A stretch of 64,000 nucleotides of DNA. It comes from a bacterium. Its GTDB lineage: Bacteria; SAR324; JACQKK01. The position numbers were made by a program, and so were the translations under genes. The stretch is from the NCBI GenBank assembly GCA_965240465.1, contig OZ251219.1:896001-960000 (forward strand). Direction: 5' to 3'. The notes beneath the pieces were generated by a model, which made no database searches, was not told the DNA's origin, and saw nothing but the letters and a program-made list of their open reading frames with translations. Position 1 is the stretch's first letter. Every line of letters begins with the position of its first letter. Shown here one piece after another: positions 15,837 through 40,488 of this stretch.

Positions 15837-17846
15837 CTAGGGCTTTTTGTGTCCGTAGAATCGGATGCCCCACTCGGTTACTTGGTGGGTTGATTCAGCC
15901 AATAGATCCGCGATTTTCAGGGTCCAGTTGCCATTGGGGGTTTCTCCTAGGTGGCGGGCGGAACCGAATTCTACCTCAGTGGGAGTTGTAAAACTGCAGA
16001 TAATCAATACTTTAGATTTGTTAAAACAAAGATGTGTCTCAGCTAAGATGCTGGTTGTATGTGTGGGTGAGGTGAGCGATATTTGCAAATTGCCGTAGTA
16101 TTCTCCACTCAATTTTATGGTGATTTCTAGATATTCAATGAAATCCAGGGTTGGGTTCAGCTCGGCTACGGTGAGGATGCTGGTTATTCCTGATGGTTGG
16201 TTATCGGGGATGTTTTGCTCATCTTTTGGGATTATCACCGAGTATCCTTCTGCTTTCACCATGGGACCTACATTGTTCCAGTTATGGGCTTTTTTGACCG
16301 CGGCTTCAGCATCAACGAGTCCGAAGCCGTACTGGTGATTGTGATGGTAGGGTGTTTCTGAGTATTCACTACCAGTATAGCTATTGGCTCCATCAAACCA
16401 TCCTGTGTGGCTGGGTTCTATTTTGCGAGCGGTAGCTGCCATGATCAGTCGTACATCTCTCCAGCCCAATCGGGGATTGATAGAACGCATTAAAGCGGCT
16501 ACTCCAGACACGATAGGAGCAGACCCAGATGTACCACTAAAGGTATCTGTATAATCTGTAGGGTTATAACCCATCTCGCCAGGGATATCGGTGGTGACCA
16601 GTCCTGTTGAGCCGATACCATCTCTTGATAGTCCACAAATCCATAGGTTGGCACCCATTTCCGAATAAGTAGCTCGGGAGCCATTATAGTCAACTGCACA
16701 AACGGTAGTTACTCCATGATACTTGGTACGAGCACGGTAGTTGGAATTGTTAGCCCTAAGACCTTTAATCAGGTGATTATTACCTGCTGAAAGGACGTAA
16801 AAAATTCCCTTACCATCGTAGCCAGTTTGGATTCCTTCATCAATGGCAGCCTTCCAGCTACTGGGAGTAGGGACGAAAGTTCCTATGGGAGTACTCCCCC
16901 AGCTATTGTTGGAAACCGCGGTTTCCAGTTTGTGTCTTAGCATGGCATCAACATAATTACCTTTGAGACTCTCTAGCAGATTAAGCCCAAAAAACTTGGA
17001 ATCAGGAGATACTCCGATGACTCCCAGACCATTATCCTTTGCAGCTACTATTAAACCAACTACCGCAGTTCCATGTTCCGATGCACCCTTATTAGCGGGT
17101 TCATGGGGGTCGTTGCCCTTACTTACGTAATTATAACTATACCCATCCTTATGATTAGCACTTAAATCGGGGTGTGATATTATTACCCCGTCGTCAACCA
17201 CGGCTATCAACACCTGAGACAACACCTGAGAACTTCCCTCAATGATCTGCCAGGCCTCGGGAGCATTGATGTCAACATCATTTTCATTATGCAAGTGCCA
17301 CTGAGCCGAGTACAAGGGATCGGCATTGCCAATAACCGTAGGCGAATTCACCACTACCTCAATACCACTGGTGCAGTGGGTGACTTTTGTTAAACAAGCT
17401 CCATAATAATATGTCCCTGGGATGGATCTGTCCCTACGGGGAGTGGTATCTCTTTTGGTACCATTAGCACCGATGCTGCTGAAGAGTACCCCGTCTAATA
17501 GGGTGTCCCTATGAGTGATTTTGTCATTAATGGAACGATAATAGGAAATATCCGCGGGAATGGGTTTGTTGGTGCGATTCCTTACATCCACCGAAAGGGT
17601 AATTCTACTATTAAAGTCAAATGTTGCTGGAGTAACCGATAGGTTTTCCAGTACTAAATCAGTCAGTGGCTCAGGAGGTTCAGGAGGCCCAGGAGGCTCA
17701 GGAGGATCTACGATAGTGGCTTCTTTAGTCCCTCCAGACTCCGAACCCTCGCTTTTGCTACACTGAGAAAGCCACAAAGACGACAATAAAACCACACTCA
17801 GCGACCAAAATAAGCGGTGGCAAGCGTATTTGGTAAGAAACGACAT
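15837..17846 (-). CDS. Kexin/furin-like S8 serine protease, putative lipoprotein, with CARDB-like and P-domain
   Basis: VVDDG, HGTAV, SAGN and GTSGSAP catalytic motifs; LGWRDV, YGFG; P-domain ending WGIRFYG; signal ending LSQC. Confidence 0.92.
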   Translation of the reverse strand: MSFLTKYACHRLFWSLSVVLLSSLWLSQCSKSEGSESGGTKEATIVDPPEPPGPPEPPEPLTDLVLENLSVTPATFDFNSRITLSVDVRNRTNKPIPADISYYRSINDKITHRDTLLDGVLFSSIGANGTKRDTTPRRDRSIPGTYYYGACLTKVTHCTSGIEVVVNSPTVIGNADPLYSAQWHLHNENDVDINAPEAWQIIEGSSQVLSQVLIAVVDDGVIISHPDLSANHKDGYSYNYVSKGNDPHEPANKGASEHGTAVVGLIVAAKDNGLGVIGVSPDSKFFGLNLLESLKGNYVDAMLRHKLETAVSNNSWGSTPIGTFVPTPSSWKAAIDEGIQTGYDGKGIFYVLSAGNNHLIKGLRANNSNYRARTKYHGVTTVCAVDYNGSRATYSEMGANLWICGLSRDGIGSTGLVTTDIPGEMGYNPTDYTDTFSGTSGSAPIVSGVAALMRSINPRLGWRDVRLIMAATARKIEPSHTGWFDGANSYTGSEYSETPYHHNHQYGFGLVDAEAAVKKAHNWNNVGPMVKAEGYSVIIPKDEQNIPDNQPSGITSILTVAELNPTLDFIEYLEITIKLSGEYYGNLQISLTSPTHTTSILAETHLCFNKSKVLIICSFTTPTEVEFGSARHLGETPNGNWTLKIADLLAESTHQVTEWGIRFYGHKKP

Positions 17847-17965
17847 GGCAAAATATAGGCAATCCAGTTACTGAGTTATACAATGAATAAGTGACGGATG
17901 TCAATAATCGCCATTTTTAGCCGTTTAAGAAATAGATTAAACATGGTATGCTGGAAGAACATTCT

Positions 17966-18120
17966 GACGCAAATGAGAGTGCAAAAGCAGGGGACGCAAA
18001 TGAGAGTGCAAAAGCAGGGGACGCAAATGAGAGTGCAAAAGCAGGGGACGCAAATGAGAGTGCAAAAGCAGGGGACGCAAATGAGAGTGCAAAAGCAGGG
18101 GACGCAAATGAGAATGCAAA
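17966..18120. repeat. 27-bp tandem repeat GACGCAAATGAGAGTGCAAAAGCAGGG, 5 full copies plus a partial
   Basis: Directly visible in the divergent intergenic region; no spacers. Confidence 0.95.
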
Positions 18121-18282
18121 TGGAAATTCAAGTGATGCCTCTGATTTGGTGCTAGATGCCGATGGTGTAGGTCTAATATGTGGCTATCGGATAAAAAACC
18201 ATGATTTTCTTGCTTTCTTGACAATTTATGTGTGATACTCACCGCAGGAACCTTTGTACCATTGCTTGACCTCCTAGGAGAA

Positions 18283-18999
18283 ATGTATATGTTTGCTATT
18301 GTAACAAGAAAAAATCAGCATCGCAGAGGTATATTGATGGGACTAGTTGCTCTGGTCTTTGCCCTTGCCTTTGTCTTGCCTTTGGCGTCAACGGCTTGGT
18401 CGCAGAAGATCAAGACAGGAGATCTGGCAGAACTGAAAAAGCAAATCCTGAAAAGGGAAAAGGCTGAGGCAGAAGCTCGTGCTTTGTCCAATGAGCCAGA
18501 ACCAGAGCCCCTCTATTGGTACGATGGCGATGAACGCCGCACAGTATTTGTAGACAACAGATACTATGCAATTTTTCGCAGTGGAGACTCCGTCAAGGAA
18601 CGCACTCAGCCGCCTAGTTTGGGTCAAGGTGAAGAAGTAGTTGTTTCAAATGCTTTTGTGTCTATTGTAAAGAAAGGCAACTCAGAAGCACAAACTCAAA
18701 GCACTTATGACGATAGTCACGATCTTGTTTTTAGTAATCAATATGGTCAATTGCTAGCTCTGCCCGGGGGGGTACTTTTGTTCTTTAACAAAAATATAAC
18801 AGATGCAGAAATTGAACGATTCTTCGTCTCTAAAAACATCCCTAGTAGTCAGTACAAGAAAAACCCCGACATGAGAAACTTCTATGTGGTGGAAACAGAA
18901 CCCGGATTGCCATCACTTGAATTGGCCAACAAACTGAAGCTTTCCCCAGAGTTGTTTATCTCCAGTCCTAACTGGTGGCAAAAATATGAACTGCATTAG
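18283..18999 (+). CDS. Secreted protein resembling a stand-alone subtilase prodomain / external chaperone
   Basis: AGGAG RBS before ATG 18283; signal peptide ending AWS; C-terminal ~80 aa (PGGVLLFF...YVVET..LELANKL..SPELFISSPNW) resembles the pattern of S8 propeptides; first gene of the protease array. Confidence 0.6.
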   Translation: MYMFAIVTRKNQHRRGILMGLVALVFALAFVLPLASTAWSQKIKTGDLAELKKQILKREKAEAEARALSNEPEPEPLYWYDGDERRTVFVDNRYYAIFRSGDSVKERTQPPSLGQGEEVVVSNAFVSIVKKGNSEAQTQSTYDDSHDLVFSNQYGQLLALPGGVLLFFNKNITDAEIERFFVSKNIPSSQYKKNPDMRNFYVVETEPGLPSLELANKLKLSPELFISSPNWWQKYELH

Positions 19000-19057
19000 A
19001 TAAAATGCTGGCATCAATCTGGAACTTATTTAATCGATTGATGGACGAAAATGGTGG

Positions 19058-21445
19058 GTGCTGAGAGGGTGTGGTTTTCGGATGGTTGTTTTGTCTGGTG
19101 GGGGTGTTGTGAGGACGTTATTTTCAGGTAGTTATTTTGCTCACTTGCTTCGCGGTAGCTTGGGCTGGCTTTTGTTGGCAGGTTCCCTGTTTTTGCTGGT
19201 CCAATGTGGAGGTGGGAGTAACAGTGGTGGGAGTAACAGTGGTGGCAGTGGCGAAGGTGAGAGTGGTACTCCCGATTTGGTAATTGTCGGGAGCAAGCTT
19301 AGTTCAAAGAGTGCTGTACTCGGTGGAAACTTGACGATTACCTCAACGATCAAAAATCAGGGTACGGGAATCTCGGGTGGTGCTGATAGTCTACAGACGG
19401 TCACCTTTTATCGTTCTAGCAATAAATTCATTAGTCCCAGAGACGAGGTGCTAGGTACAGCTCCCTTGGATGCTCTGGCACCCAATGCGGAAAGTAATCC
19501 CAGTTTTTCTTTTCTAGCTCGGGCTGGCGATAGTTATTATGGTGCTTGTTTGGGGTTCACCAATGATTGCCAAATTGGAATCAAGCTCAGCGTTCCTAGC
19601 CCTGATATATCTGGTAGTTCAAATAGTGCTACTTGTCAGCTTTCTAAGGGAGGTGTATTTGCATCTGTGCCATCAAGCTCGGCAAATCGTGTGTTGCTGG
19701 ATATGAGTACAAACACTTTTACTGAAAGCATAAGGATAAACCAAGGCAAAATCACACAATATCTTATGCAAATAAAGCAAAAAGGGGTTCTAGATATCTG
19801 GAGTACAGGTTCCGAGGACATGAGTGCTTTACTATTTGATGGGAATTGCAAGGCTATTAGTGAACATTACTATGCCGAAGATGGAGGAATAGGTGGTAGC
19901 AATAACTTCCAGATTTCAGCTATCGCAGCGGAGGGTTATTATTTCTTAGTCCTTTATGAGGAATCTATGAAGCATGCTAGTTTTCGGATAACAGCTAGTC
20001 TTAATTATCCTCCTAGGGTGAAAGGTAGTGACCCGTTGTATCCCCAGCAATGGCACTTAAACAATCCAAATGACCAAGAGATTGATATCAATGCCCCCCA
20101 AGCCTGGGAAATTACACGGGGAAACCCTGAGGTGTTGGTCGCTGTTATTGATACTGGGGCGGAGGTTATACACCCAGATCTAGCCCCGAACCACGATGAT
20201 CGCTATGACATAGAGGTGGATAGTGATACTCCAGATCACGGAACTGCGGTAGTGGGTGTGATAGTCGCAAAAGGAAATAATGGCATAGGCGTTAGCGGAG
20301 TAGCCCCAGAGGTTAGTTTTGTGTCGCGAGGTGCCACACTTGGTACGGATGAGTATATAGCGGGTTCCCTAATCAAAGATAAAGAGCAAGTAGCCATTTC
20401 CAATAATAGTTGGGGTAAGAATTCTAGAGGACGTTTTGTTACAAATTATGAAATCTATAGGGTTGTCCTTGAGGACGGAGTTACCAATGGATATGGTGGC
20501 AAGGGAATTTTCTACGCATTTGCAGGGGGGAATAATCATGAAATAGGTTATAATTCTAACTACGCATTCCCTCAAAGATATTACAGTGTTGCTCCCATTT
20601 GTGCTGTTGGTAAGAATGGTGAAAGAGTCAGTTACTCGGAGAAAGGGGCCAACCTATGGGTTTGTGCTCCCTCTAAGTCCCGCAATCAAATAGGAATTAC
20701 AACTACCGCTGCTGGAGGAGGCTATAAGAGTGATTTCGGGGGCACCTCTGCGGCGGCCCCGATCGTGGCTGGAGTAGCTGCCTTGATGCGTTCTATAAAC
20801 CCAGAACTGGGCTGGAGGGATATACGCCTTATCTTAGCCGTCACCGCCCAAAAAAATGATAGTCTTAACTCAGGATGGTTCCACGGTGTTACTAGCTATG
20901 ATGGTAGCAATTATTCGGGCAGTTTATATCAGCATAATCATGAATATGGCTTCGGGCTTGTCAACGCCGAAGCTGCGGTCCTGAAGTCTCAAAACTGGAA
21001 TAATGTAGGCCAGATGGTGAGAACTCCCTTTTATTCTCAGGATATCCCAACAGCTAAACAGCGGGTCCGTTATGGAGGTACTGGGCTGAGCAGTGTTATT
21101 AAGGTGACAGGCTTAAATGATACCCTTGATTTCATAGAATATATTGACATTGATATTAAAATTAGCGGAAAACACTATGGAAACTTACAGATAAATTTAA
21201 TTTCTCCTGCCAATAAGACCAGTTACTTGGCAGAACAACATCATTGTGTCTATAGTACTATCTATGGTATTATCCAGGGTACATGTGTTTTTAGTGCACC
21301 TACCAAGGCCTACTTTGGTTCAGCCCGCCACTTAGGTGAATCTCCCGATGGAGATTGGACCTTAGAGGTCGTGGATGATGTTATTAACTACAACAACAAT
21401 GTTTATTCCTGGGGTCTTAAGTTCTACGGGCATAAAAAACCGTGA
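19058..21445 (+). CDS. Kexin-like S8 protease, putative lipoprotein (CARDB-like, PPC-like, S8, P-domain); start likely GTG 19109
   Basis: IDTG, HGTAV, GGN, GTSAAAP; YYGAC domain; P-domain; LVQC. Confidence 0.92.
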   Translation: MLRGCGFRMVVLSGGGVVRTLFSGSYFAHLLRGSLGWLLLAGSLFLLVQCGGGSNSGGSNSGGSGEGESGTPDLVIVGSKLSSKSAVLGGNLTITSTIKNQGTGISGGADSLQTVTFYRSSNKFISPRDEVLGTAPLDALAPNAESNPSFSFLARAGDSYYGACLGFTNDCQIGIKLSVPSPDISGSSNSATCQLSKGGVFASVPSSSANRVLLDMSTNTFTESIRINQGKITQYLMQIKQKGVLDIWSTGSEDMSALLFDGNCKAISEHYYAEDGGIGGSNNFQISAIAAEGYYFLVLYEESMKHASFRITASLNYPPRVKGSDPLYPQQWHLNNPNDQEIDINAPQAWEITRGNPEVLVAVIDTGAEVIHPDLAPNHDDRYDIEVDSDTPDHGTAVVGVIVAKGNNGIGVSGVAPEVSFVSRGATLGTDEYIAGSLIKDKEQVAISNNSWGKNSRGRFVTNYEIYRVVLEDGVTNGYGGKGIFYAFAGGNNHEIGYNSNYAFPQRYYSVAPICAVGKNGERVSYSEKGANLWVCAPSKSRNQIGITTTAAGGGYKSDFGGTSAAAPIVAGVAALMRSINPELGWRDIRLILAVTAQKNDSLNSGWFHGVTSYDGSNYSGSLYQHNHEYGFGLVNAEAAVLKSQNWNNVGQMVRTPFYSQDIPTAKQRVRYGGTGLSSVIKVTGLNDTLDFIEYIDIDIKISGKHYGNLQINLISPANKTSYLAEQHHCVYSTIYGIIQGTCVFSAPTKAYFGSARHLGESPDGDWTLEVVDDVINYNNNVYSWGLKFYGHKKP

Positions 21446-21562
21446 TGATTGCCTCAGCGGTGATTTTGTGTTACTCTGCGGTATGCTTGGAATATATTGT
21501 AGGGGGGAGTACCAATGGTTCACCGCTAGTCCCGATCACCAACTCTAATAAGGGACAGAAAT

Positions 21563-23971
21563 ATGAACTGGAAAGCATCATTCTTAGGTAGTTTTACTCA
21601 CTTGCTTCACCGAAGCTTGGGCTGGTTTTTGTTGGCAGGTTCCCTGTTTTTGCTGGTCCAATGCGGAGGTAGTGGTAGCGAAGGTACCGTTCCATCACCA
21701 TCTCCGCCACTGCCATCTCCGCCTGTTGGTACTGATGATTGTAAAACTGAGGCTGAGGGTGCAACTGGTCTGACAATTGTCGGGAGCAAGCTTAGCTCAA
21801 AGAGGGCCTCAATCGGTGATAATCTAAGAGTTACGGTAACGATAAGAAATAAGGGTACGGCTACTTCAGGCGGTACTGGTAGCCCACAGACGGTCACCTT
21901 TTATCGCTCTAGTAATAAATTCATTAGTCCCAGAGACGAGGTGCTAGGTACAGCTTCCTTTGGCACTCTTAGGCCCAATGCGGAAAGTAATCCCAGTTTT
22001 TCTTTTCTAGCCCAGAAAGGCGATAATTATTATGGTGCTTGTTTGGGGACCACCAATAATTGCCAAATTGGGGTCAAGGTCAGCGTTACCAGCCATGATA
22101 TATCCGGTAGCGATAGTTATACTGATCCCTGTACGCTTTATAAGGTGGATAGAACTCCGATTACTACTTCAGCTTCAATAAATGCTAAGTCGCTGACCCT
22201 AGGCAGGACAGTTGATATTGTTACAAGCGTAGAGCAAAATCAAGCCAGATACTATTTGTTGCAAGTAGAGCAAGAAGGGCTTTTGGATATCTGGAGCACC
22301 GGCTCACAAGACACGGTTGCTTTACTATTTGATGGGAATTGCAAGGCTATTAGTGAACATTACTATGCCGAAGATGGAGGAATAGGTGGTAGCAACAACT
22401 TCCAAATTAAGGCTACTGCGGAGGCTGGTTACTATTTTTTAGTGGTTCATGAGAAGTCTCTCAAGGCTGCTAATTTTATGATAAACATCAGGCTTAATGG
22501 TTTTCCAGGGACAGGTGAAGACCCGCTGTATTCTGATCAATGGCACTTAAACAATCCGAATGACCAAGAGATTGATATCAATGCTCCCCAAGCTTGGGAG
22601 ATTACGCGGGGATGTCCTAGTGTGCTAGTTGCTGTTATTGATACTAGGGCGAATGTTGCACACCCAGATTTAGCCCCTAACTACGATGATCGCTACGATA
22701 ATTTTAATCCACCACTTATGCATGAACACGGAACATTAGTATCAGGTGTGATTGCAGCTGCAGGCAATAATGGGATAGGTGTTAGCGGAGTGGCTCCAGA
22801 GGTTGGTTTTGTGTCACGGTTTGCCATTGGGGCGTCGGGTAGTGTTAATTGGAGTATATCAGATGCCCTGATCGGAGATAAGGTGCAAGTAGCCATTTCC
22901 AATAATAGTTATGGTTTGGGGTATATAGTTCAAGGAGACTTTGAGCTAAATAAGGCAATCCATCAGACTGTCCTTGAGGAAGGAATTACCAGTGGATATG
23001 GTGGCAAGGGGATTTTCTACGTATTTGCAGCGGGGAATGATCATGTGTATGGCGATAATTCTAACTATCATAGTCCTGAAAGATATTACAGTGTTGCCAC
23101 CATTTGTGCTGTTGGTAAGAATGGCACCAGATCCTCTTATTCGGAGAAAGGAGCCAACCTGTGGATTTGTGCTCCCTCTTCTGCGTCTGTCACTAACGTA
23201 CAGGCAGGAATCGTAACTACAGATATTGTAGGCAGCGAAGGATCTAGCACAGGTGATTATGCCGATGATTTCAGGGGCACTTCTGCGGCGGCCCCGATCG
23301 TTTCTGGGGTAGCTGCCTTGATGCGTTCTATTAACCCAGAATTGGGTTGGAGGGATGTACGCCTTATCTTAGCCGTCACCGCCCAAAAAAATGATAGCAC
23401 CAACCCAGGATGGTTTGAAGGGATGGCTAGTTATGATGGCAGCAATTATTTGGGCAGTTTATATCAGCATAATCATGAATATGGCTTTGGGGTTGTAGAT
23501 GCCCAAGCTGCGGTCAGTCAATCTCAAAGCTGGAATAATGTAGGCCAGCTGGTAGTAAGTTCTTCTCAATCCAAGGATATCCCAACAGCTAAACAGCAGG
23601 TACCTGATGGAAATACAACTGGGCTAAGCAGTGTTATTACGGTGGCAGGCTTAAATGATACCCTTGATTTCATAGAATATATTGACATTGATATTAATAT
23701 GGATGGAAAACACTACGGAAACTTACAGATAAATTTAATTTCTCCCGACAACAAGACCAGTACTTTGGCAGAAGAACATCATTGTGTCTATAATCGTATA
23801 CTGATTACATGTGCTTTTAATACACCTACCAAGGCCTCCTTTGGCTCTGCCCGCCATTTGGGTGAGTCTCCTGATGGAGATTGGACCTTAGAGATCGTGG
23901 ATGATGTTATTAACCACAACAACAATGTTTATTCCTGGGGTCTTAAGTTCTACGGGCATAAAAAACCGTGA
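21563..23971 (+). CDS. Kexin-like S8 protease, putative lipoprotein (CARDB-like, PPC-like, S8, P-domain)
   Basis: IDTR, HGTLV, AGN, GTSAAAP; paralog. Confidence 0.92.
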   Translation: MNWKASFLGSFTHLLHRSLGWFLLAGSLFLLVQCGGSGSEGTVPSPSPPLPSPPVGTDDCKTEAEGATGLTIVGSKLSSKRASIGDNLRVTVTIRNKGTATSGGTGSPQTVTFYRSSNKFISPRDEVLGTASFGTLRPNAESNPSFSFLAQKGDNYYGACLGTTNNCQIGVKVSVTSHDISGSDSYTDPCTLYKVDRTPITTSASINAKSLTLGRTVDIVTSVEQNQARYYLLQVEQEGLLDIWSTGSQDTVALLFDGNCKAISEHYYAEDGGIGGSNNFQIKATAEAGYYFLVVHEKSLKAANFMINIRLNGFPGTGEDPLYSDQWHLNNPNDQEIDINAPQAWEITRGCPSVLVAVIDTRANVAHPDLAPNYDDRYDNFNPPLMHEHGTLVSGVIAAAGNNGIGVSGVAPEVGFVSRFAIGASGSVNWSISDALIGDKVQVAISNNSYGLGYIVQGDFELNKAIHQTVLEEGITSGYGGKGIFYVFAAGNDHVYGDNSNYHSPERYYSVATICAVGKNGTRSSYSEKGANLWICAPSSASVTNVQAGIVTTDIVGSEGSSTGDYADDFRGTSAAAPIVSGVAALMRSINPELGWRDVRLILAVTAQKNDSTNPGWFEGMASYDGSNYLGSLYQHNHEYGFGVVDAQAAVSQSQSWNNVGQLVVSSSQSKDIPTAKQQVPDGNTTGLSSVITVAGLNDTLDFIEYIDIDINMDGKHYGNLQINLISPDNKTSTLAEEHHCVYNRILITCAFNTPTKASFGSARHLGESPDGDWTLEIVDDVINHNNNVYSWGLKFYGHKKP

Positions 23972-24052
23972 TGATTGCCTCAGCGGTGATTTTGTGCTAC
24001 GCTGTACTTGTCTGGGACCAATTTGCGTTATAGGGGAAATATAGGCGGGGCG

Positions 24053-24129
24053 GTGTCAATCCCGAGTAGTGTCAATCCCGAGTAGTGTCAATCCCGAGTA
24101 GTGTCAATCCCGAGTAGTGTCAATCCCGA
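24053..24129. repeat. 16-bp tandem repeat GTGTCAATCCCGAGTA, about 4.8 copies
   Basis: Directly visible upstream of ATG 24157. Confidence 0.95.
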
Positions 24130-24156
24130 TCGCCAGCCCTGATAAGTGACAGAAAT

Positions 24157-26535
24157 ATGAGCTGGAAAGCATCATTCTTAGGTAGTTTTGCTAACTTGCT
24201 TCGCGGTAGCTTGGGCTGGCTTTTGTTGGCAGGTTCCCTGTTTTTGCTGGTCCAATGTGGAGGTGGCAGTGGCGGAGGTGGCGGAGGTGGCGGAGGTGAG
24301 AGTGATACTCCCGATTTGGTAATTGTCGGGAGCGAGCTTAGTTCAAAGAGTGCTGTACTCGGTGAAAACTTGACGATTACCTCAACGATCAAAAATCAGG
24401 GTACGGGAATCTCGGGTGGTGCTGATAGTCTACAGACGGTCACCTTTTATCGTTCTAGTAATAAATTCATTAGTCCCAGAGACGAGATACTAGGTATAGC
24501 TTCCTTTGGTACGCTGGAACCCAATGCCCAAAGCACTCAATCTTTCAATTTTGAGGCTCGGGCTGGCGATAATTATTATGGTGCTTGTTTGGGGTTCACC
24601 AATGATTGCCAAATTGGAATCAAGGTCAGCATTTCCGTCCCTGATATATCTGGTAGTTCAAATCGTACTACTTGTCAGATTTCTGGGGGAGGTGTATCTG
24701 CGTTCATGACTTCAGGTTCAGAAATTCCTAGGATTCTGTACAGTAGTAAAAACACTTTTACTGAGAGAATGAAGCTAGACCGAGGCGGAGTAGGATACTA
24801 TTTGCTGAAAGTAGAGCGAAAAGGGACTCTAGATATCTGGACTACCGGTTCCGAGGACATGAGTGCTTTACTATTTGATGGGAATTGTAATGCTATTAGT
24901 GAACGTTACTATGCCGAAGACGGAGGAATAGGTGGTGGCAATAACTTCCAGATTTCAGCTATCGCAGCGGAGGGTTATTATTCATTAGTCTTTTATGAGA
25001 AATCCTTCAAGGTCGCTACTTTTGATATCACAGCCATACTTAATTATCCTCCTAGGGTGATAGGGGATGACCCGCTGTATTCTGATCAATGGCACTTAAA
25101 CAATCCGAATGACCAAGAGATTGATATCAATGCCCCCCAAGCTTGGGAAATTACGCGGGGAAACCCTGAGGTGTTGGTCGCTATTATAGATGGTGGGGTG
25201 GAGATTACACACCCAGATCTAGCCCCGAACTACGATGATCGCTATTATGATTTAGAAGATGTTAATGATTACTTAGATCACGGAACATCAGTGGCAGGTC
25301 TGATAGTCGCAAAAGGCAATAATGGCATAGGCGTTAGCGGAGTGGCTCCAGAGGTTAGTTTTGTGTCGCGAGGTTTAGATGCCCCAGGGTCTGATGAATG
25401 GGGTACATTAAGTGCCCTCATCAAAGATAAAGAGCAAGTAGCCATTTCCAATAATAGCTGGAGTACGTCTGGTTCTTTCAAGGGGATATTTTATCCAAGT
25501 GATAGATATGCATCCTATGGGACTGTCATTACAGAAGGAATTACCAGTGGATATGGTGGCAAGGGGATTTTCTACGCATTTGCAGGGGGGAATGATCATG
25601 AAGAAGGTAATAATTCTAACTACACAGTCCCTGGAAGATATTACAGTGTTACCACCATTTGTGCTGTTAGTAAGGATGGCACCAGATCCTCTTATTCGGA
25701 GAAAGGAGCCAATCTGTGGATTTGTGCCCCCTCTTCTGAGTCTGTCACTAACGTACAGGCAGGAGTTGTAACGACAGATGTTACAGGCATGGAAGGAACT
25801 AGTACGGGTGATTATTCCGATGATTTCGGGGGCACTTCTGCGGCGACTCCGATCGTTTCTGGGGTAGCTGCTTTGATGCGTTCTGCTAACCCAGAATTGG
25901 GCTGGAGGGATATACGTCTTATCTTAGCCGTCACCGCCCAAAAGAATGATAGCACCAACCCAGGATGGTTTGAAGGGATGGCTAGTTATGATGGCAGCAA
26001 TTATTCGGGCAGTTTATATCAGCACAATCATGAATATGGCTTTGGGGTTGTAGATGCCCAAGCTGCGGTCAGTCAATCTCAAAACTGGAATAATGTAGGT
26101 GAGATGGTGGTAGGTTCTTCTCAGTCCAAGGATATCCCAACAGCTAAGCAGCAGGTACCTGATGGAAATACAACTGGGCTAAGCAGTGTTATAAGTGTGA
26201 CTGACCTAAATGCTACCCTTGATTTCATAGAATATGTTGACATTGAACTTAATATGGATGGAGAAAACTATGGAGACCTACAGATAAATCTCACTTCTCC
26301 CGCCAATAAGACCAGTACTTTGGCAGAACGACATGATTGTTCTAATATCGAGGTGGTTTTAGTGGTTTTTAAGTGTGTTTTTGACACCCCTACCAAGGTC
26401 TCCTTTGGTTCCGCCCGCCACTTAGGTGAATCTCCTGATGGAGATTGGACCTTAGAGGTTATAGATGGAATTACTGGCGACAACAACAATGTTTATTCTT
26501 GGGGTCTTAAGTTCTACGGGCATAAAAAACCGTGA
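24157..26535 (+). CDS. Kexin-like S8 protease, putative lipoprotein (CARDB-like, PPC-like, S8, P-domain)
   Basis: IDGG, HGTSV, GGN, GTSAATP; paralog. Confidence 0.92.
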   Translation: MSWKASFLGSFANLLRGSLGWLLLAGSLFLLVQCGGGSGGGGGGGGGESDTPDLVIVGSELSSKSAVLGENLTITSTIKNQGTGISGGADSLQTVTFYRSSNKFISPRDEILGIASFGTLEPNAQSTQSFNFEARAGDNYYGACLGFTNDCQIGIKVSISVPDISGSSNRTTCQISGGGVSAFMTSGSEIPRILYSSKNTFTERMKLDRGGVGYYLLKVERKGTLDIWTTGSEDMSALLFDGNCNAISERYYAEDGGIGGGNNFQISAIAAEGYYSLVFYEKSFKVATFDITAILNYPPRVIGDDPLYSDQWHLNNPNDQEIDINAPQAWEITRGNPEVLVAIIDGGVEITHPDLAPNYDDRYYDLEDVNDYLDHGTSVAGLIVAKGNNGIGVSGVAPEVSFVSRGLDAPGSDEWGTLSALIKDKEQVAISNNSWSTSGSFKGIFYPSDRYASYGTVITEGITSGYGGKGIFYAFAGGNDHEEGNNSNYTVPGRYYSVTTICAVSKDGTRSSYSEKGANLWICAPSSESVTNVQAGVVTTDVTGMEGTSTGDYSDDFGGTSAATPIVSGVAALMRSANPELGWRDIRLILAVTAQKNDSTNPGWFEGMASYDGSNYSGSLYQHNHEYGFGVVDAQAAVSQSQNWNNVGEMVVGSSQSKDIPTAKQQVPDGNTTGLSSVISVTDLNATLDFIEYVDIELNMDGENYGDLQINLTSPANKTSTLAERHDCSNIEVVLVVFKCVFDTPTKVSFGSARHLGESPDGDWTLEVIDGITGDNNNVYSWGLKFYGHKKP

Positions 26536-26653
26536 TGATTGCCTCAGCGGTGATTTTGTGTTACTCTACCGTGTGCGGTCGGAATATATTGTAGGGGGAG
26601 TATCAGTGGTTCACTGCTAATCCTGATCGCCAATTCTAGTAAGGGGCAGAAAT

Positions 26654-28999
26654 ATGAACTGGAAAGCATCATTCTTAGGTAGTTTTGCTAACTTGCTTCA
26701 CCGAAGCTTGGGTTGGCTTTTGTTGGCAGGCTCCATGTTTCTTTTGGCACAATGCGGAGGTGGGAGTAGTAGCGGGAGCGGAACGGTTGCTAGTAGTAAT
26801 GATTGTAAAACTGAGGATGACGATGCAACGGGTTTGACAATTGTGGATACCAAGATTAGCTCTCAGAAGGCTGAAATCGGTGATAATCTAAGGGTTACAG
26901 TAACTGTAAGAAATCAGGGTACAGCTACTTCAGGCGGTGCTGGTAGCTCACAGATTGTCACCTTTTATCGTTCTTATAGTAAATTCATTAGTCCCAGAGA
27001 CGAAATGCTGAGTACAGCTCCCTTAGACGCCCTGGAACCCAATGCGGAAAGTAATCCCAGTTTTTCTTTCCCAGCCAGTTCGGGAGATAATTATTATGGT
27101 GCCTGTTTGGGGACCATCAATAGTTGCCAAATTGGGATAAAGGTTAGTGTTCCCCATCCCGATATATCCGGTAGCGATAGTTATACTGATACCTGCACGC
27201 TTTACAGGGTAGATAAAATTCCGATTACTACTTCAGCTTCAATAAATGCTAAGTCGCTGACCCTAGGCAATTCAGTTGAAATTGCGGATGAAGACGTCAA
27301 TCAAAACGAAGCAAAATACTATTTGCTACAATTAAATCAAAAAGGAATCCTGAGTGTCTGGACCACAGGTTCCGCGGACACGGTTGCCTTACTATTTGAT
27401 GGGAATTGCAATCCTGTTAATGGACATGACTATGCTGATAATGGAGGAATAGGTGGTGAAAATAACTCACAGATTTCAGCCACTGCAGAGGCGGGCTACT
27501 ATTTTGTAGTGGTTCATGAAAAGTTCCTCAAGGCAGCGACCTTCTCTGTCCGGTCCAGGCTTGCCTATCCTCCACAAGAAATTGGTGAAGACCGGCTGTA
27601 CCCAAAGCAATGGCACTTAAACAATCAGGATGACATTGATATCAATGCCCCCCAAGCTTGGGAAATTACGCGGGGATGTCCTAGTGTGCTGGTTGCTGTT
27701 CTTGATGGTGGGGTGGAAATTACACACCCAGATTTAGCCCCTAACCACGACGATCGCTATGACAATCCTGGTGTTGAGTATGATACAGCTCACGGAACTG
27801 CGGTAGCGGGTTTGGTCGCTGCGGTAGGCAATAATGGCATAGGCGTGAGCGGAGTAGCTCCAGAGGTTAGTTTTGTGTCACGATTTATCATTGGGTTTGG
27901 CAACACTCAGAATATAGCGGAAGCCCTTGTACGAGATAAAGAGCAAGTAGCCATTTCCAATAATAGTTGGAATAACAAGGGGTTTTACGGAGACTTTGAG
28001 TCAAATAATGAAATCCGTAGGACTGTCATTACAGAAGGAGTTACCAATGGATATGGTGGCAAGGGGATTTTCTACGCATTTTCAGGGGGAAATGGACATT
28101 TGTATGGTGATAATGCTAGCTACAGTACTCCTGAAAGATATTACAGTGTTGTTGCCATTTGTGCTGTCAATAAAAATGGTGAAAGATCCTCTTATTCTGA
28201 GAAAGGAGCCAACCTGTGGATTTGTGCCCCTTCTGGCGGCGTTCCGAATGGAGGACTTGTAACGACAAATATTTCAGGTAATTATACCAATAGTTTCGAT
28301 GGTACTTCTGGTGCAGCCCCGATAGTATCTGGGGTAGCTGCCTTGATGCGTTCTGCTAACCCAGAACTGGGCTGGAGGGATGTACGCCTTATCTTAGCGG
28401 CTACCGCCAAAAAAATTGGTAGCAAATCAGGATGGTTCCAAGGAGTAGCTAGCTACAATGGTAGCGATTATTTCGGAAATCCCTACCAACACAATCATGA
28501 ATATGGCTTCGGGCTTGTCAACGCCCAAGCTGCTGTCAGTCAATCTCTAAACTGGCATAATGTAGGCCAGATGGTGAAAACATCTTATAAATCTAAGGGT
28601 ATCCCGATGGCTAAACGGCAGGTCCGTTATGGAAACCAAAACGGGTTAAGCAGTGTCCTTAAGGTGACGGGCTTAAATGATACCCTGGACTTCATAGAAC
28701 ACGTTGACATTAAAATTAATATATATGGACTAAGCTACGGGGACTTACAGATAAATTTAACTTCTCCCGCCAATAAAACCAGTATTTTGGCAGAAGAGCA
28801 TACTTGTTATAATAGGGGTAATGATAGGTATTATGTCTGTCTTTTTAACAGACCTACCGATGCTTTCTTTGGTTCAGCCCGCCATTTGGGTGAGTCTCCC
28901 GATGGAGATTGGACATTGAAGGTCGTAGATAAGGTTCTCGGCAACACCAACAGGATTTATTACTGGGGTCTTAAGTTCTACGGGCATAAAAAACCGTGA
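26654..28999 (+). CDS. Kexin-like S8 protease, putative lipoprotein (CARDB-like, PPC-like, S8, P-domain)
   Basis: LDGG, HGTAV, GGN, GTSGAAP; paralog. Confidence 0.92.
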   Translation: MNWKASFLGSFANLLHRSLGWLLLAGSMFLLAQCGGGSSSGSGTVASSNDCKTEDDDATGLTIVDTKISSQKAEIGDNLRVTVTVRNQGTATSGGAGSSQIVTFYRSYSKFISPRDEMLSTAPLDALEPNAESNPSFSFPASSGDNYYGACLGTINSCQIGIKVSVPHPDISGSDSYTDTCTLYRVDKIPITTSASINAKSLTLGNSVEIADEDVNQNEAKYYLLQLNQKGILSVWTTGSADTVALLFDGNCNPVNGHDYADNGGIGGENNSQISATAEAGYYFVVVHEKFLKAATFSVRSRLAYPPQEIGEDRLYPKQWHLNNQDDIDINAPQAWEITRGCPSVLVAVLDGGVEITHPDLAPNHDDRYDNPGVEYDTAHGTAVAGLVAAVGNNGIGVSGVAPEVSFVSRFIIGFGNTQNIAEALVRDKEQVAISNNSWNNKGFYGDFESNNEIRRTVITEGVTNGYGGKGIFYAFSGGNGHLYGDNASYSTPERYYSVVAICAVNKNGERSSYSEKGANLWICAPSGGVPNGGLVTTNISGNYTNSFDGTSGAAPIVSGVAALMRSANPELGWRDVRLILAATAKKIGSKSGWFQGVASYNGSDYFGNPYQHNHEYGFGLVNAQAAVSQSLNWHNVGQMVKTSYKSKGIPMAKRQVRYGNQNGLSSVLKVTGLNDTLDFIEHVDIKINIYGLSYGDLQINLTSPANKTSILAEEHTCYNRGNDRYYVCLFNRPTDAFFGSARHLGESPDGDWTLKVVDKVLGNTNRIYYWGLKFYGHKKP

Positions 29000-29086
29000 T
29001 GAGTGCCTCAGCGGTGATTTTGTGTTACTCTGCCGTGTGCGGTTTTCTGGAATATTTTGATGGTTTTTTGGAGTAGGAGCTCGCAC

Positions 29087-30787
29087 ATGTATGTTTTTTT
29101 TAGAAATAAAGTAGATTGGCAAGGTTTTAGCTGGTTTTTGATGTCTGTGTCATTATTTGTCCTATATCAGTGTGCTGATGGCGGTATTGATAAGGGGAAA
29201 GAAGAAGATCCCTACTACAAATATCAATGGCATTTAAATGATCCCGTTAACGATGTTGATATCAATGCTCCCGAAGCTTGGAAGATCTCTGAAGGAGAAG
29301 GAATAACGGTAGCTGTTAATGATGACGGAACTATCGTTAATCATCCAGATTTGGCAGATAACCACAGACCAAAATTGAGTTTTAACTTTGTAACAAAAGG
29401 TATTGATCCAGATCTTCCTTGGAAGAGGGGTGCATCGGATCATGGAACGCTTGTGGCGGGCTTAATTATAGGGGTAAGCGGTAATGGCAAGGGAATCAGG
29501 GGGGTTGCCCCCAAGTCTAAATTTTTTGCTTTGAACATTCTAGAAGGAAAAGGCGTTGTGGACCAGGCACTATCATTTACTAAAAATTTTATTGTAGATG
29601 GAAAACCTAGTAATTATGCTGTTTCAAATAATAGCTGGGGACCTATCCCCGCAGGGGGATGGGGAACTTCTAATTTTGTTATTAATAGTGCATGGGAGGC
29701 AGGACTTAACGAAGGCTTTGGTGGGAAGGGGGTCTCTTATTTGTTTGCAGCCGGTAATGATCGTCATGTATCTTATAAAGATCCCATCTCTGATGCGGCT
29801 ACTTATTATAGATTTGATGATCTGAATTATGCTTGGTCAGGTAAGCACTACGGTGTTATGCAGATTTGTGCTATTAGTAGTTTTGGTAAGATATCTTTTT
29901 ATTCAACACCTGGGGCTACTTTGTGGGTTTGTGGACCATCTAGCGATAGCGGTCCTGATGGAAGCAAGCTCGGTTTGACAACAACAGATAAGCCTGGAGA
30001 AGAAGGGTATAATGCTGGAATACCTTCGCTGGCATACCCAGATTATCGTGATGCTGATTATACCAGTAACTTTGGTGGGACTTCTGGTGCTGCCCCGATT
30101 GTTTCTGGAGTGGTGGCTTTGATTAGATCTGCCAATAAGGAATTAACTTGGAGAGATGTGAAACTTATTTTAGCTGCAACATCTAGAAAAGTTGATCCTG
30201 CTCATAAAGGATGGTTTCTGGGAGTAGATAGTTATGATGGCACCAAATCTGGGTCAGAACGCTACTCTGGTAAGAAGTACAATCATAGTCATGATTATGG
30301 GTTTGGTCTTGCTGATGCTGGACGTGCTGTTAAGGTGGCCCAATCATGGCAAAGTATAGGGGCTGAGTTTATGAAAATAGCAGTGGGGGAAAATAATAAC
30401 ATCCTTGTGGGTGAGAGGAACATTTCGGATAATGATGTAACTGGTAGAATCTATGAACTAACGGTTTCTGATCCTAGAATTGATTTCATAGAATTTGTAA
30501 GTGTCAATGCTTGGTTTGAGGGTAATAGTGCTGGGGATTTACGGGTGGAATTAACTTCGCCGGCAGGAATGACTAGTGTTCTTGCCGAGCCGCATGCTTG
30601 TTTTTATGATGGAAGCCCAACCAGATGTTCGATTTCAGCAAATACTGAGTATGATTTTAGTTCTGCACGTCATCTTGGTGAAGACCCAAATGGAGTTTGG
30701 ACTTTGAGAGTGGTAGACGAGGTTGAAAACGATATTCACCAAATTTATGGCTGGATAATATCTGTTTATGGACATAAGAAGGACTAG
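29087..30787 (+). CDS. Kexin-like S8 protease, putative lipoprotein (S8 plus P-domain only)
   Basis: AGGAG before ATG 29087; LYQC followed by only about 11 aa before DPYYKYQWHL; NDDG, HGT, AGN, GTSGAAP. Confidence 0.92.
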   Translation: MYVFFRNKVDWQGFSWFLMSVSLFVLYQCADGGIDKGKEEDPYYKYQWHLNDPVNDVDINAPEAWKISEGEGITVAVNDDGTIVNHPDLADNHRPKLSFNFVTKGIDPDLPWKRGASDHGTLVAGLIIGVSGNGKGIRGVAPKSKFFALNILEGKGVVDQALSFTKNFIVDGKPSNYAVSNNSWGPIPAGGWGTSNFVINSAWEAGLNEGFGGKGVSYLFAAGNDRHVSYKDPISDAATYYRFDDLNYAWSGKHYGVMQICAISSFGKISFYSTPGATLWVCGPSSDSGPDGSKLGLTTTDKPGEEGYNAGIPSLAYPDYRDADYTSNFGGTSGAAPIVSGVVALIRSANKELTWRDVKLILAATSRKVDPAHKGWFLGVDSYDGTKSGSERYSGKKYNHSHDYGFGLADAGRAVKVAQSWQSIGAEFMKIAVGENNNILVGERNISDNDVTGRIYELTVSDPRIDFIEFVSVNAWFEGNSAGDLRVELTSPAGMTSVLAEPHACFYDGSPTRCSISANTEYDFSSARHLGEDPNGVWTLRVVDEVENDIHQIYGWIISVYGHKKD

Positions 30788-30984
30788 ACCATAGTTTCTC
30801 CCCAGTAGGTTTTTTAGGGCGGCCTATTAAAATCCAGAGTTCTTATATTGGTGTTAGGATATCTGCCAGAGCAGTCTGAGTTGAGAAAATATTGTACTAT
30901 TTTTTCTATAAAGTGTTTACAAACGGTTGTCTTTACACTAGAAAGGATATATTTATATTGAAACGTAGCGAGAATTTGAATTAA

Positions 30985-32685
30985 GTGTATTTATTTCTTC
31001 CAAATAGAGTGTTTCAGCAAGGTTCTGGTTGGGTTTTGCTGTCTGCGTCGTTGTTTTTTCTTGCTCAGTGCGGTGGTGACGGAATATCTGAAGTGAATGA
31101 GGATGAGGATCCCTTGTATCGGTATCAATGGCACCTAAATGACCCCGATAACGATATTGATGTCAATGCTCCTGAAGCTTGGAAGATTACAGAAGGAGAA
31201 GGAATAATTGTAGGTGTTAATGATGACGGGGCTATAATTAATCATCCAGATCTGGAGGCTAACCACAGTAGTGGATTAAGTTATGACTATGTTAACAAAG
31301 ATATAGATCCGCATGCTCCTCAAATTAGTGGTGCCTCAGTGCATGGAACGGCTGTGTCAGGTTTGATTGTAGGAGTGAAAGATAATGATAAGGGAATCAG
31401 GGGGGTGGCCCCAAAGGCTAAATTCTTTGCTACGAACGGTCTAGAAGCCGGTAGATTGCTTGATGGCCTTACGATAAATTTGAGTAATACTCAGTATGCT
31501 GCTTCAAATAACAGCTGGGGTTCTGTTTTTGGGGGAACATTGAATTCTATCAGTGCTACGTATCATGAAGCATTTGATAATGGGGTTAAAAACGGATTTG
31601 GTGGAAAGGGTATTGTTTATTTATTTTCAAGCGGTAATGATCGTTACAGAAGATATAGGGATCCCGTGTCTAAAAAGGATGTTTATTATGTTTATGATAA
31701 TTCAAATTATAGTAACGCACTTAAGCACCCTGGTGTTTTTCCTATTTGTGCTGTTAATAGTTATGGTAAGGTTTCTTTTTACTCAGAACCCGGGGCTAAT
31801 TTACTTGTTTGTGGACCATCGGGCGATGGCGGTCCTGATAGAAGCAGAAGCAAGCGTTCTTTGACAACAACGGATAGGCCTGGAGTAGACGGGTATAATA
31901 GGGGGTCCAGTTCGAGTAATTATAAGAATTATAATTATACCAATACATTTAGTGGGACTTCTGGTTCGGCACCAATTGTGACTGGAGTGGTGGCTTTGAT
32001 TAGATCTGCCGGTCCGGGATTAACTTGGAGGGATGTGAAGCTTATTTTAGCTTCAACAGCTAAAAAAGTTGATCCAGGTGACGCAGGGTGGTTTCAGGGG
32101 GCTGCTAGCTATGATGGCACCAAAGTTGGGCTGGAACGCTATGCTCATACCAATGCAAAATATAATCATAATCACGATTTTGGGTTTGGTCTTGCTGATG
32201 CTGAGCGTGCTGTTAAGGCCGCCAAATCATGGAAGAGTAATGTAGGGGCACTTGAGTTTACGTCAGTAGAGGTGGGGGGAGAGGGTAACATTCCTGCAGG
32301 AAGGATGAATATTCCGGATAATGATACAACTGGTAAAAGCTATAAAATAAGGTTTTATAGTACTAGCATTGATTTCATAGAATTTGTAAGTGTCGATATT
32401 TGGATTAAAGCTGTTGGTTCAGCTACCCATTCTGGAGATTTACGGATAGAATTGACTTCTCCGGTAGGTAAAAGACCAAGTATTCTTGCTGAGCCCCATT
32501 CCTGTTTTTTAGGTGATCACCCCTCAAGATGTGAATTTGATAGTAGGATCGTTTTTTCTTCTTTACGTCATCTTGGTGAAAATCCAAATGGACATTGGAC
32601 TTTGAAAGTGGCAGACGAGGGTGAAAAAGATATTCATCGGATTTCAGGTTGGAAAGTGACTGTCTACGGGCATCGTAAGCAGTAG
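30985..32685 (+). CDS. Kexin-like S8 protease, putative lipoprotein (S8 plus P-domain only)
   Basis: LAQC followed shortly by DPLYRYQWHL; NDDG, HGTAV, SGN, GTSGSAP. Confidence 0.92.
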   Translation: MYLFLPNRVFQQGSGWVLLSASLFFLAQCGGDGISEVNEDEDPLYRYQWHLNDPDNDIDVNAPEAWKITEGEGIIVGVNDDGAIINHPDLEANHSSGLSYDYVNKDIDPHAPQISGASVHGTAVSGLIVGVKDNDKGIRGVAPKAKFFATNGLEAGRLLDGLTINLSNTQYAASNNSWGSVFGGTLNSISATYHEAFDNGVKNGFGGKGIVYLFSSGNDRYRRYRDPVSKKDVYYVYDNSNYSNALKHPGVFPICAVNSYGKVSFYSEPGANLLVCGPSGDGGPDRSRSKRSLTTTDRPGVDGYNRGSSSSNYKNYNYTNTFSGTSGSAPIVTGVVALIRSAGPGLTWRDVKLILASTAKKVDPGDAGWFQGAASYDGTKVGLERYAHTNAKYNHNHDFGFGLADAERAVKAAKSWKSNVGALEFTSVEVGGEGNIPAGRMNIPDNDTTGKSYKIRFYSTSIDFIEFVSVDIWIKAVGSATHSGDLRIELTSPVGKRPSILAEPHSCFLGDHPSRCEFDSRIVFSSLRHLGENPNGHWTLKVADEGEKDIHRISGWKVTVYGHRKQ

Positions 32686-40443: not shown

Positions 40444-40488
40444 CTTCTGTTTAACGGGATTGACAAATAGGGGATGATATTGTGGTAC

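Follow-up and report, generated by a model that had tools for sequence, protein, structure and literature searches.

Folding with the help of a propeptide has its textbook example in the subtilases. Propeptide-like proteins also occur on their own as subtilase inhibitors, such as PBI2 of yeast, POIA1 of Pleurotus and SPI-1 of Arabidopsis; to our knowledge, the target proteases of these inhibitors have propeptides of their own, and inhibitor and protease are not paired in an operon. In Pseudomonas and Burkholderia, the lipase-specific foldase (Lif) is a separately encoded, dedicated steric chaperone that shares an operon with its client, a secreted hydrolase. In the literature searched, the serine protease ASP of Aeromonas sobria, with ORF2, was the only studied subtilase exception with a separately encoded partner. 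According to PMC5638518, maturation of ASP requires ORF2, whose gene lies just downstream of that for ASP; the C-terminal region of ORF2 binds around the ASP catalytic site, with the last residue (Lys) at Ser336, and inhibits ASP; and homologous ORF2 operons occur in four further genera, giving five gamma- and betaproteobacterial genera in all (PMC5638518). A stand-alone propeptide-like inhibitor is also in print for Plasmodium SUB1 (PMC6993865). Here we analyzed a 64,000-nucleotide stretch of a bacterial genome (contig OZ251219.1; hereafter the window, position 1 being its first letter), in which a small gene at 18283–18999 heads a plus-strand array of kexin-like subtilases. It is strongly supported that the product of this gene is prodomain-like, free-standing and a partner of kexin-like proteases without propeptides, because synteny, a prodomain-type fold, a fixed basic-ended C-terminal register, cis-fused forms and a predicted active-site complex all point to it. 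We consider it probable that the protein is a trans-acting subtilase prodomain, exported separately, which is both folding template and inhibitor of these proteases.

The small gene, its family and the partner proteases

Open reading frames (ORFs) were checked between 15837 and 32685 of the window. Six proteases, named here by their first base, form a head-to-tail array on the plus strand from 19058 to 32685, and the seventh (15837–17846) lies on the minus strand, divergent from the small gene. In Pfam, all seven matched Peptidase_S8, with E values from 6e-34 to 1.5e-40, and P_proprotein, with E values from 1e-11 to 4.5e-14. These are the seven counted from the sequence alone in an earlier reading (the sequence-only reading); the genome total is eight, since a whole-genome search revealed another protease of the same kind (G000:C1:228494-230251), in which PEPPVT repeats stand between the Cys and the catalytic domain. 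The genome (G000) is a single contig of 1.6 Mb, rated at 83.6% by marker genes. In all eight proteases the S8 domain precedes the P-domain, as in the kexin/furin type (S8B), and the columns of the catalytic Asp, His, Asn (oxyanion) and Ser are intact. The paralogues share 42–77% identity, and 30985 is the most distant member of the array (58% to 29057 and 42–49% to the six others).

The view that the seven window proteases lack a propeptide was borne out. None of the seven matched a propeptide family in Pfam at E ≤ 0.1, and the alignment of 30985 with the mature furin chain starts at residue 38 of the former and residue 4 of the latter (1p8j_A, E 1.7e-30). The eighth protease likewise has no propeptide, so that all eight in the genome are without one. 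The conserved Cys of the signal-like segment precedes the DP.Y..QWHL motif by 11–12 residues in the two short proteases 29057 and 30985 (11–13 in the sequence-only reading). Because 30985 aligns to mature furin from residue 38, the catalytic domain of these two proteins begins 11–12 residues past the Cys. Three of the eight proteases have no N-terminal domain at all. For the five longer window proteins, a CARDB-like intervening region, usually with a PPC-like domain, had been proposed. The CARDB part stood: Pfam matched it in four of the five (in 21563 at 22.1 bits, with a cut-off of 22.7), and the N-terminal region of the fifth, 15837, had no Pfam match yet aligned with the CARDB part of the others. 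PPC, on the other hand, was matched only in 26654, under the cut-off (E 5e-4). An AlphaFold2 (AF2) model of residues 60–345 of 19058 contained 16 strands and no helix, and a beta-alpha-beta-beta-alpha-beta unit was absent from this model, whose mean predicted local distance difference test (pLDDT) score was 61.

The signal-like segment of each of the eight proteases ends with [LVY][VAS]-Gln-Cys. A canonical lipobox has Gly, Ala or Ser at position -1 before the Cys, and none of the eight proteases has one of these residues there. A simple pattern applied to the 1807 ORFs of the genome found Gln at -1 in nine cases, eight of which were these proteases; the other 103 lipobox candidates had Ser (67), Gly (26) or Ala (10). 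From the sequences, the Gln-Cys end may be a non-canonical lipobox or another processing site. The proteases had been described as lipid-anchored; the Cys does end the signal-like segment in all eight, but lipid anchoring is uncertain because Gln stands at -1, which counts against this part of the proposed scheme.

The small gene, as the sequence-only reading had it, heads the array and encodes a protein of the secreted type, judging from its ORF and hydrophobic signal-like segment. The putative signal cleavage site, read by eye, lies between Ala and Trp in Ala-Ser-Thr-Ala-Trp. The product matched no Pfam family at E ≤ 10 and no NCBIfam family, and neither the single protein nor the family profile gave a sequence match in the PDB other than chance-level rows (E ≥ 0.15). 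One such row, a 22-residue G(F/L)PSLELAN match to Pup ligase (4b0t_A / 4bjr_A; profile positions 200–221, E 0.21), is probably due to chance.

A word-indexed search found 209 homologues at E ≤ 1e-3, and a family profile search found 1034 clusters at 50% identity (E ≤ 1e-3), 360 of them at ≤ 1e-30. The family ranges over Chloroflexota, Binatia, Acidobacteriota and Actinomycetota, in addition to this small-genome bacterium. Among the matches listed, none of 120 relatives carried a precomputed Pfam domain. When 140 representatives were compared with Pfam at E ≤ 0.05, fn3 in two extended forms and chance-level rows were found, with no propeptide or ORF2 family; likewise, the profiles PF05922 (Inhibitor_I9) and PF22148 matched neither the small protein nor its family. 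The family alignment consists of a variable N-terminus (hydrophobic segment and low-complexity linker) followed by a conserved module, which has W.DGD close to its beginning and LPGGVLL...FF..N.I...N.F.VET.PG.PSLELAN.L....V.ISSPNW towards the other end. We refer to the family by the SSPNWW motif. It is large and is named in neither Pfam nor NCBIfam. With it, many hypothetical proteins gain a name and a testable function, on the known principle of the external chaperone.

To compare loci, relatives were searched in one genome per species; the best 80 of the 164 found were kept, which gave 78 distinct loci with 6 kb flanks. The records are mostly from Dehalococcoidia, the others being from Tepidiformaceae, Binatia, Acidimicrobiia, Candidatus Multivorans and Holophagales. 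A tblastn match to the kexin-like protease 30985 lay within the flanks of 74 of the 78 loci. Where both genes could be delimited (48 loci), the protease ORF started between -53 and +83 bases relative to the module gene stop in 43, ten of which had a 4-base overlap; of the 30 other loci, 29 had no delimitable ORFs and one had the proteases upstream of the module gene. All 17 partner proteases that were scanned consisted of S8 and P-domain, with PPC or fn3 in the N-terminal regions and no propeptide family.

Prodomain-type fold, C-terminal tail and predicted complex

The AF2 model built with the family alignment (mean pLDDT 71) contained a beta-alpha-beta-beta-alpha-beta unit at residues 164–228 (pLDDT 83–95). 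When it was compared with 48,161 chains by VIA-align, the PC1/3 prodomain bound to furin (9fid_D) ranked second (Z 7.2, root-mean-square deviation 2.4, 66 of 71 residues aligned). Further subtilase prodomains were among the top 50 (6mw4_A, 3whi_B, 3t41_A, 3bgo_P, 8c4x_B and 4ne9_C), the prodomain matches scoring Z 5.6–7.2. ORF2, present in the PDB as chain B of 3WQB, did not appear in the best 50 rows of either of two VIA-align lists, which does not exclude a likeness to it.

The C-terminus of the family has a fixed register. In each of 120 homologues the chain stops 12 residues from where SSPNW begins with its first Ser (119 scored 12, and P0037 scored 11 since the search pattern caught the motif one residue late), and the last residue is Lys in 85, Arg in 30, Gln in three and Asn in two, that is, basic in 115. 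A further 146 representatives had the 12-residue tail in 112 cases, ending in Arg (49), Lys (47) or other residues (16). The window protein, which ends ...SSPNWWQKYELH, has the same register and a His as its last residue.

In two relatives the module is part of the protease chain itself; these cis forms are genuine and not merged gene calls. The module occupies residues 131–282 of P0142 (1286 residues) and residues 119–285 of P0137 (3846 residues), with S8 and P-domain further on in both. At the fused junction (...SSPNWWREIEAR followed by QDPGE...) the chain continues past the Lys/Arg and no signal peptide follows. Free-standing forms stop at exactly the residue beyond which the fused forms continue. 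The proposal that the last ~80 residues of the window protein resemble an S8 propeptide and end where a propeptide would be cleaved agrees with the fold topology, the 12-residue register and the fused forms. Unlike a cis propeptide, the window module is not covalently placed at the protease N-terminus but is a separate gene.

The fused proteins differ in architecture. In P0137 a signal peptide and fn3 come before the module, and a PPC-like stretch, S8, the P-domain and many CARDB/fn3/cadherin repeats come after it, in this order; P0142 has module, S8 and P-domain without the N-terminal parts and repeats of P0137. A giant protein of 5724 residues, P0147, also has the module in cis.

For complex prediction, residues 72–238 of the small protein were combined with residues 36–566 of protease 30985, one of the eight paralogues, with self-made, unpaired alignments. 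The interaction prediction score from aligned errors (ipSAE) was 0.86, 0.84 and 0.86, compared to 0.00 for the best of three controls; this mark is reached by 58 of 80 solved complexes and by two of 110 mismatched pairs. The runs agreed in at least 91% of contacts, and the pLDDT of the partner was 81. In the predicted complex the tail (residues 232–238) contacts protease residues 80–81, 120, 177–182, 215–218 and 324–327, which include the catalytic D80, H120, N218 and S326. The sheet of the C-terminal domain (165, 167, 194–200 and 225–228) lies on two protease helices, residues 153–167 and 185–199, and the N-terminal domain makes contacts through residues 81–84 (including the invariant DGD), 104–108, 123–125 and 153–156. 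The prediction for 30985 thus places the module tail in the active-site cleft, as had been expected from the sequence alone.

The S1 pocket of furin is built with Asp258 and Asp306 (PMC8453481). We placed the equivalent columns through the 30985–furin alignment and scored 79 protease rows. Where the module tail ends in Lys or Arg (75 rows), the Asp306-equivalent column holds Asp in 59, Glu in six, Ser in six, Asn in three and Gly in one. Tails ending in Glu, found at two Acidimicrobiia loci, go with Asn, Asn and Ser (three rows), and the single row with an Asn tail has Asp. The seven window proteases, whose module ends in His, have R, A, H, T, S, A and S in this column and P/S/Y/G/G/P/F in the Asp258-equivalent column, and so do not have the acidic pocket associated with specificity for basic residues. 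The trend across the family fits a tail residue that sits in S1; the independent events behind it are few, and it has exceptions.

Several observations weigh against a trans-acting prodomain. RRM domains tied with the prodomains in the VIA-align comparison (best Z 7.3), nothing reached Z 8, and a Foldseek search against the PDB returned nothing at E ≤ 1e-3. Structure comparison, of the kind suggested by the sequence-only reading, thus placed prodomains near the top without singling them out: the fold is compatible with a prodomain but not diagnostic, because RRM domains score equally and nothing reaches Z 8. No significant sequence match to any known prodomain or ORF2 family was found. The complex prediction rests on self-made, unpaired alignments and one paralogue of eight, and its score may reflect likeness to solved subtilase–prodomain complexes. 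Ten of the 75 rows with a Lys- or Arg-tailed partner have no acidic residue at the Asp306-equivalent column, and the non-basic tails amount to two independent lineages plus the Asn case that keeps Asp.

A common alpha/beta sandwich fold without a significant sequence link to prodomains would also be expected if the small protein were an unrelated accessory protein, such as a substrate, anchor or adaptor of the protease, whose prodomain-like fold is coincidental. We regard this as very improbable, given the constant C-terminal register, the basic residue at its end, the cis-fused forms, the covariation of tail and S1 column, and the predicted docking at the active site with controls at 0.00.

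In the proposed mechanism, the small protein would be exported by its own signal and meet the unfolded protease outside the cytoplasm. As modeled, the sheet of its C-terminal domain would be laid on two surface helices of the newly exported catalytic domain, with the N-terminal beta domain adding contacts, and its last seven residues would thread the substrate cleft in the manner of a cleaved product, so placing the final residue (His here; Lys or Arg in most relatives) in S1. Folding of the propeptide-less proteases would be templated in trans as it is by cis propeptides, this chaperone activity being inferred, and the protease would be held inactive until the small protein is released or degraded.

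A product-like tail and a predicted place in the active site would suffice for an inhibitor and do not show foldase activity. The small protein could thus be an inhibitor only, a stand-alone propeptide-like safety catch or immunity protein in the periplasm, with proteases that fold unaided or with general chaperones; stand-alone inhibitors of this type are in print, as for Plasmodium SUB1 (PMC6993865). We consider a purely inhibitory role improbable. A cis propeptide is lacking in all partners examined (17 of 17 elsewhere and eight of eight here), the fused forms carry the module in cis exactly at the expected propeptide cleavage position, and maturation of ASP, the one kexin-like protease without a propeptide that has been studied, depends on an external partner (PMC5638518).

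Comparison with ASP/ORF2 and the one-to-eight arrangement

The trans-acting prodomain proposed here resembles the ASP/ORF2 system in several respects. The window proteases, like ASP, are propeptide-less kexin-like enzymes with S8 and P-domain, and 30985 aligns with ASP at E 1.2e-26 (3hjr_A) and about 1e-26 (3wqb_A). ORF2 (PDB 3WQB), too, is a separately encoded, exported partner of about 200 residues with its C-terminus at the protease active site, a position that the module takes in the predicted complex only (ipSAE 0.86, control 0.00). The two systems differ in gene order, since the ORF2 gene is downstream of the protease gene and the module gene lies upstream of it, both in the window and at 43 of 48 delimited loci; in the tail, which is Q-P-K in ORF2 and ...x-K/R (His in the window) after SSPNWW in the module family; and in the ratio of module to protease, which is 1:8 in this genome.

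Homology between the two partners was not detected. PF18492 (ORF_2_N) matched none of 140 representatives at E ≤ 0.05 and one of 25 family members at E 0.076. Alignment of the family with eight PF18492-positive proteins of the phylum by hhalign gave a probability of 0.2% (E 0.3), with one stretch in topological register (PVFRS..G.L..LPGGVLL against PVVLN.RTG.LAIVTG.I.V.L). Leads from the ESM Atlas to ORF_2_N clusters (0.88–0.90) and also to PF22148 were not confirmed by HMMER for either family, nor by hhalign for ORF2. The kinship between module and ORF2 is therefore only a functional analogy, without detectable homology. The comparison with ASP/ORF2 made in the sequence-only reading is apt for the functional logic, but the gene order is reversed.

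ORF2-type pairs of the canonical kind do occur in the phylum of the window (loci L083 and L094–L099). PF18492 exceeded its cut-off in nine of 87 other genomes of the phylum, at ten places, and at none in the window's own genome; three of these places directly follow a P-domain match (G015, G016 and G027). In six fetched regions (G016, G027, G081, G083, G084 and G087), tblastn showed that the neighbor of the ORF2-like gene was a kexin-like protease in every case. These genes sit downstream of the protease gene and their products end ...P-x. Four of the six ORF2-type proteases (L095–L098) have a Cys-containing signal end with the catalytic domain close behind, and the other two have long N-terminal regions. 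From these sequences, ORF2 operons appear to range more widely than the five genera published (PMC5638518).

In a tree of 94 catalytic plus P-domain sequences, the eight proteases of the window's genome formed one clade (Shimodaira–Hasegawa-like approximate likelihood ratio test, SH-aLRT, 99), 80 partners of the SSPNWW family formed another (SH-aLRT 95), and the six ORF2-type proteases stood on a long branch (1.34). Because the tree separates the ORF2-type proteases from the SSPNWW partners, the two external-partner systems go with two protease lineages; the window proteases lie nearer the SSPNWW type.

Three other known systems bear comparison. The module shares with cis propeptides (PF05922, furin/PC prodomains, Fervidolysin_NPro-like PF22148) the beta-alpha-beta-beta-alpha-beta topology, as in the 9fid_D match, and an end at the propeptide cleavage position, past which the fused forms run. 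It differs in being a separate gene with its own export signal and an extra N-terminal beta domain, in having no hidden Markov model match to PF05922 or PF22148, and in structural scores tied with unrelated RRM domains. Like inhibitors of the SUB1 type, the module is a free-standing protein with a prodomain-type fold that would occupy the protease active site, but here every partner protease is without a propeptide and the genes are adjacent. Lif has an unrelated, helical fold and is not known to mimic a product at the active site.

The module gene is single-copy in the genome, against eight proteases. Other prodomain-like families (PF18492, PF05922 and PF22148) each gave no match there. Because the tree derives the eight paralogues from one ancestor, it was the protease gene that was duplicated, not the module gene. 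None of 40 relatives (one congener, 17 members of the family and 22 of the order) has the module, and P-domain proteins occur in eight of them. When ratios were counted elsewhere, a check that the sequence-only reading had asked for, five genomes from other phyla gave module to P-domain ratios of 1:3, 3:3, 4:5, 2:2 and 2:2, with one additional weak N-terminal match in the first of the 2:2 genomes; most of these genes form adjacent pairs of module and protease. One module gene followed by two proteases was found at eight fetched loci (L008, L015, L018, L020, L035, L039, L053 and L057). Six of these, all from Dehalococcoidia (L008, L015, L018, L035, L053 and L057), have a Ser equivalent to Asp306 in the first protease and an Asp in the second, with a module tail ending in Lys. 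In G041, both P-domain matches lie inside one 2233-residue open frame, so that the two proteases may be one polypeptide.

It is likely that the module protein serves at least some of the eight proteases. Whether the single copy serves all eight is more delicate, and we hold this only tentatively, a little on the doubtful side. The counts, the single clade and the lack of another prodomain family speak for the one-to-many arrangement that had been proposed, whereas ratios elsewhere are mostly about 1:1, and the eight paralogues are least alike in the two helices on which docking is predicted: their identity is 0.13 and 0.19 (similarity 0.36 and 0.34), with indels, compared to 0.50 (similarity 0.62) for the rest of the catalytic domain. 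The S1 columns also differ between the paralogues. It is because of the poorly conserved docking surface that we hold back the one-to-many claim.

These same data, namely the variable docking surface, the S1 columns (R, A, H, T, S, A, S) and the near 1:1 ratio in five other genomes, where proteases stand next to their own module gene, would fit a prodomain that acts in trans on one or a few cognate paralogues (for example the 19058 group or an ancestral copy), the others being independent or using their N-terminal beta-sandwich domains. A subtilase propeptide is reported to be highly selective for its cognate enzyme (PMC10580911). Such restriction to cognate paralogues is a real possibility, if a rather doubtful one. 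The ipSAE of 0.86 was obtained with 30985, the most distant member of the array; the genome has no other prodomain-like gene among the three families searched; three of the eight proteases have no N-terminal domain to use; and one module gene precedes two proteases at the eight loci named above.

If one copy did serve all eight, uncoupling of the prodomain from the catalytic gene would have allowed the protease gene alone to duplicate eight-fold and to diversify in S1 pocket and N-terminal domains, within a reduced genome of 1.6 Mb, while the role of the module as a generalist partner would be kept through cleft and backbone contacts. The broadest form of the proposal is that one stand-alone exported prodomain is the shared folding template and temporary inhibitor of eight diverged surface proteases, and that the SSPNWW family is a second, independent external chaperone class, far more widespread than ORF2; we put this forward with marked reserve. 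What is new is a second external-partner family with the logic of ASP/ORF2, unrelated in sequence or very remote, with >1000 clusters at 50% identity. It may account for how hundreds of giant multidomain kexin-like proteases fold without a propeptide. The fixed tail, with its varying last residue and varying S1 pocket, offers a natural system for the co-evolution of prodomain and pocket, and no better case than the 1:8 arrangement is available for the question of whether a single trans prodomain suffices for many enzymes that have diverged.

Features of the window and its surroundings

Table 1. Coordinates of the small gene, the proteases and a neighboring importer (window positions, unless a contig is named)
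Feature	Position	Strand	Evidence
Free-standing prodomain-like gene, 238 aa, with hydrophobic signal-like N-terminus, charged helix and two-domain module	18283-18999	+	ORF
N-terminal beta-rich domain, about residues 72-160, invariant W.DGD (D81 G82 D83)	18496-18762	+	Alignment invariants; AF2 strands 76-158
C-terminal beta-alpha-beta-beta-alpha-beta domain, about residues 161-231, prodomain-type fold	18763-18975	+	AF2 pLDDT 83-95 over 160-220; VIA-align
Fixed-length C-terminal tail SSPNWWQKYELH, last residue presumed P1 mimic	18961-18996	+	Homologue register; complex model
Kexin-like S8 + P-domain protease, 669 aa, CARDB-like N-domain, without propeptide; divergent from 18283-18999	15837-17846	-	Pfam; N-region alignment; catalytic D/H/N/S present
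Kexin-like S8 + P-domain protease, 795 aa, N-region with CARDB and PPC-like parts, without propeptide	19058-21445	+	Pfam; all-beta AF2 model, residues 60-345
Kexin-like S8 + P-domain protease, 802 aa	21563-23971	+	Pfam; identity of 74-77% with 19058 and 24157
Kexin-like S8 + P-domain protease, 792 aa	24157-26535	+	Pfam
Kexin-like S8 + P-domain protease, 781 aa; weak PPC match	26654-28999	+	Pfam
Short kexin-like S8 + P-domain protease, 576 aa from TTG; ATG at 29087 possible; catalytic domain 11 residues after Cys	29057-30787	+	Pfam
Short kexin-like S8 + P-domain protease, 566 aa; partner in complex prediction	30985-32685	+	Pfam; alignment to furin/ASP
Gln-Cys ends of the plus-strand proteases	19058-19215, 21563-21670, 24157-24270, 26654-26760, 29057-29180, 30985-31075	+	
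Gln-Cys end of the minus-strand protease	17750-17846	-	
Gln-Cys end of the eighth protease	G000:C1:228494-228640		
SBP_bac_5	43587-45245	-	
Permease	42598-43557	-	
Fused permease-ATPase	40489-42579	-	
ATPase of oligopeptide-type importer	39424-40443	-	

Neither the promoter scan (37 promoter-like sites compared to 35.3 expected) nor the terminator scan (13 terminator-like sites compared to 15.6 expected) gave a signal. No terminator-like site lay in the six intergenic gaps of the array, a weak result that proves nothing. Among public sequencing runs, none of RNA was listed as containing this DNA; the two runs that do contain it belong to one study and are probably those of the source sample.

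In the congener (G001), the lpxK-def-DUF192-tmk-holB block is syntenic, with holB only 50% identical, and different genes lie beyond it (MacB-type ABC, mutL). The congener has neither the module nor P-domain proteases, and the Metallophos gene of the other flank was not found there. Its genome (1.7 Mb) and that of the window (1.6 Mb) are single contigs, far below the 2.3–5.2 Mb of the other family members examined.

The oligopeptide-type ATP-binding cassette (ABC) importer (39424–45245), which is complete, lies 7 kb downstream of the protease array. It fits a peptide-scavenging life and is no evidence for the mechanism. Two adjacent large paralogous ORFs on the minus strand (6735–9485 and 9781–12249; 916 and 822 residues) have the GLUG motif as their sole Pfam match. 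On the same strand, a Type ISP restriction-modification-like gene (53969–57028) combines N6_Mtase and Type_ISP_C. The lowest GC content of the window, 0.358 compared to about 0.46 elsewhere, is at 54001–56000, and the Type ISP gene may have been acquired horizontally.

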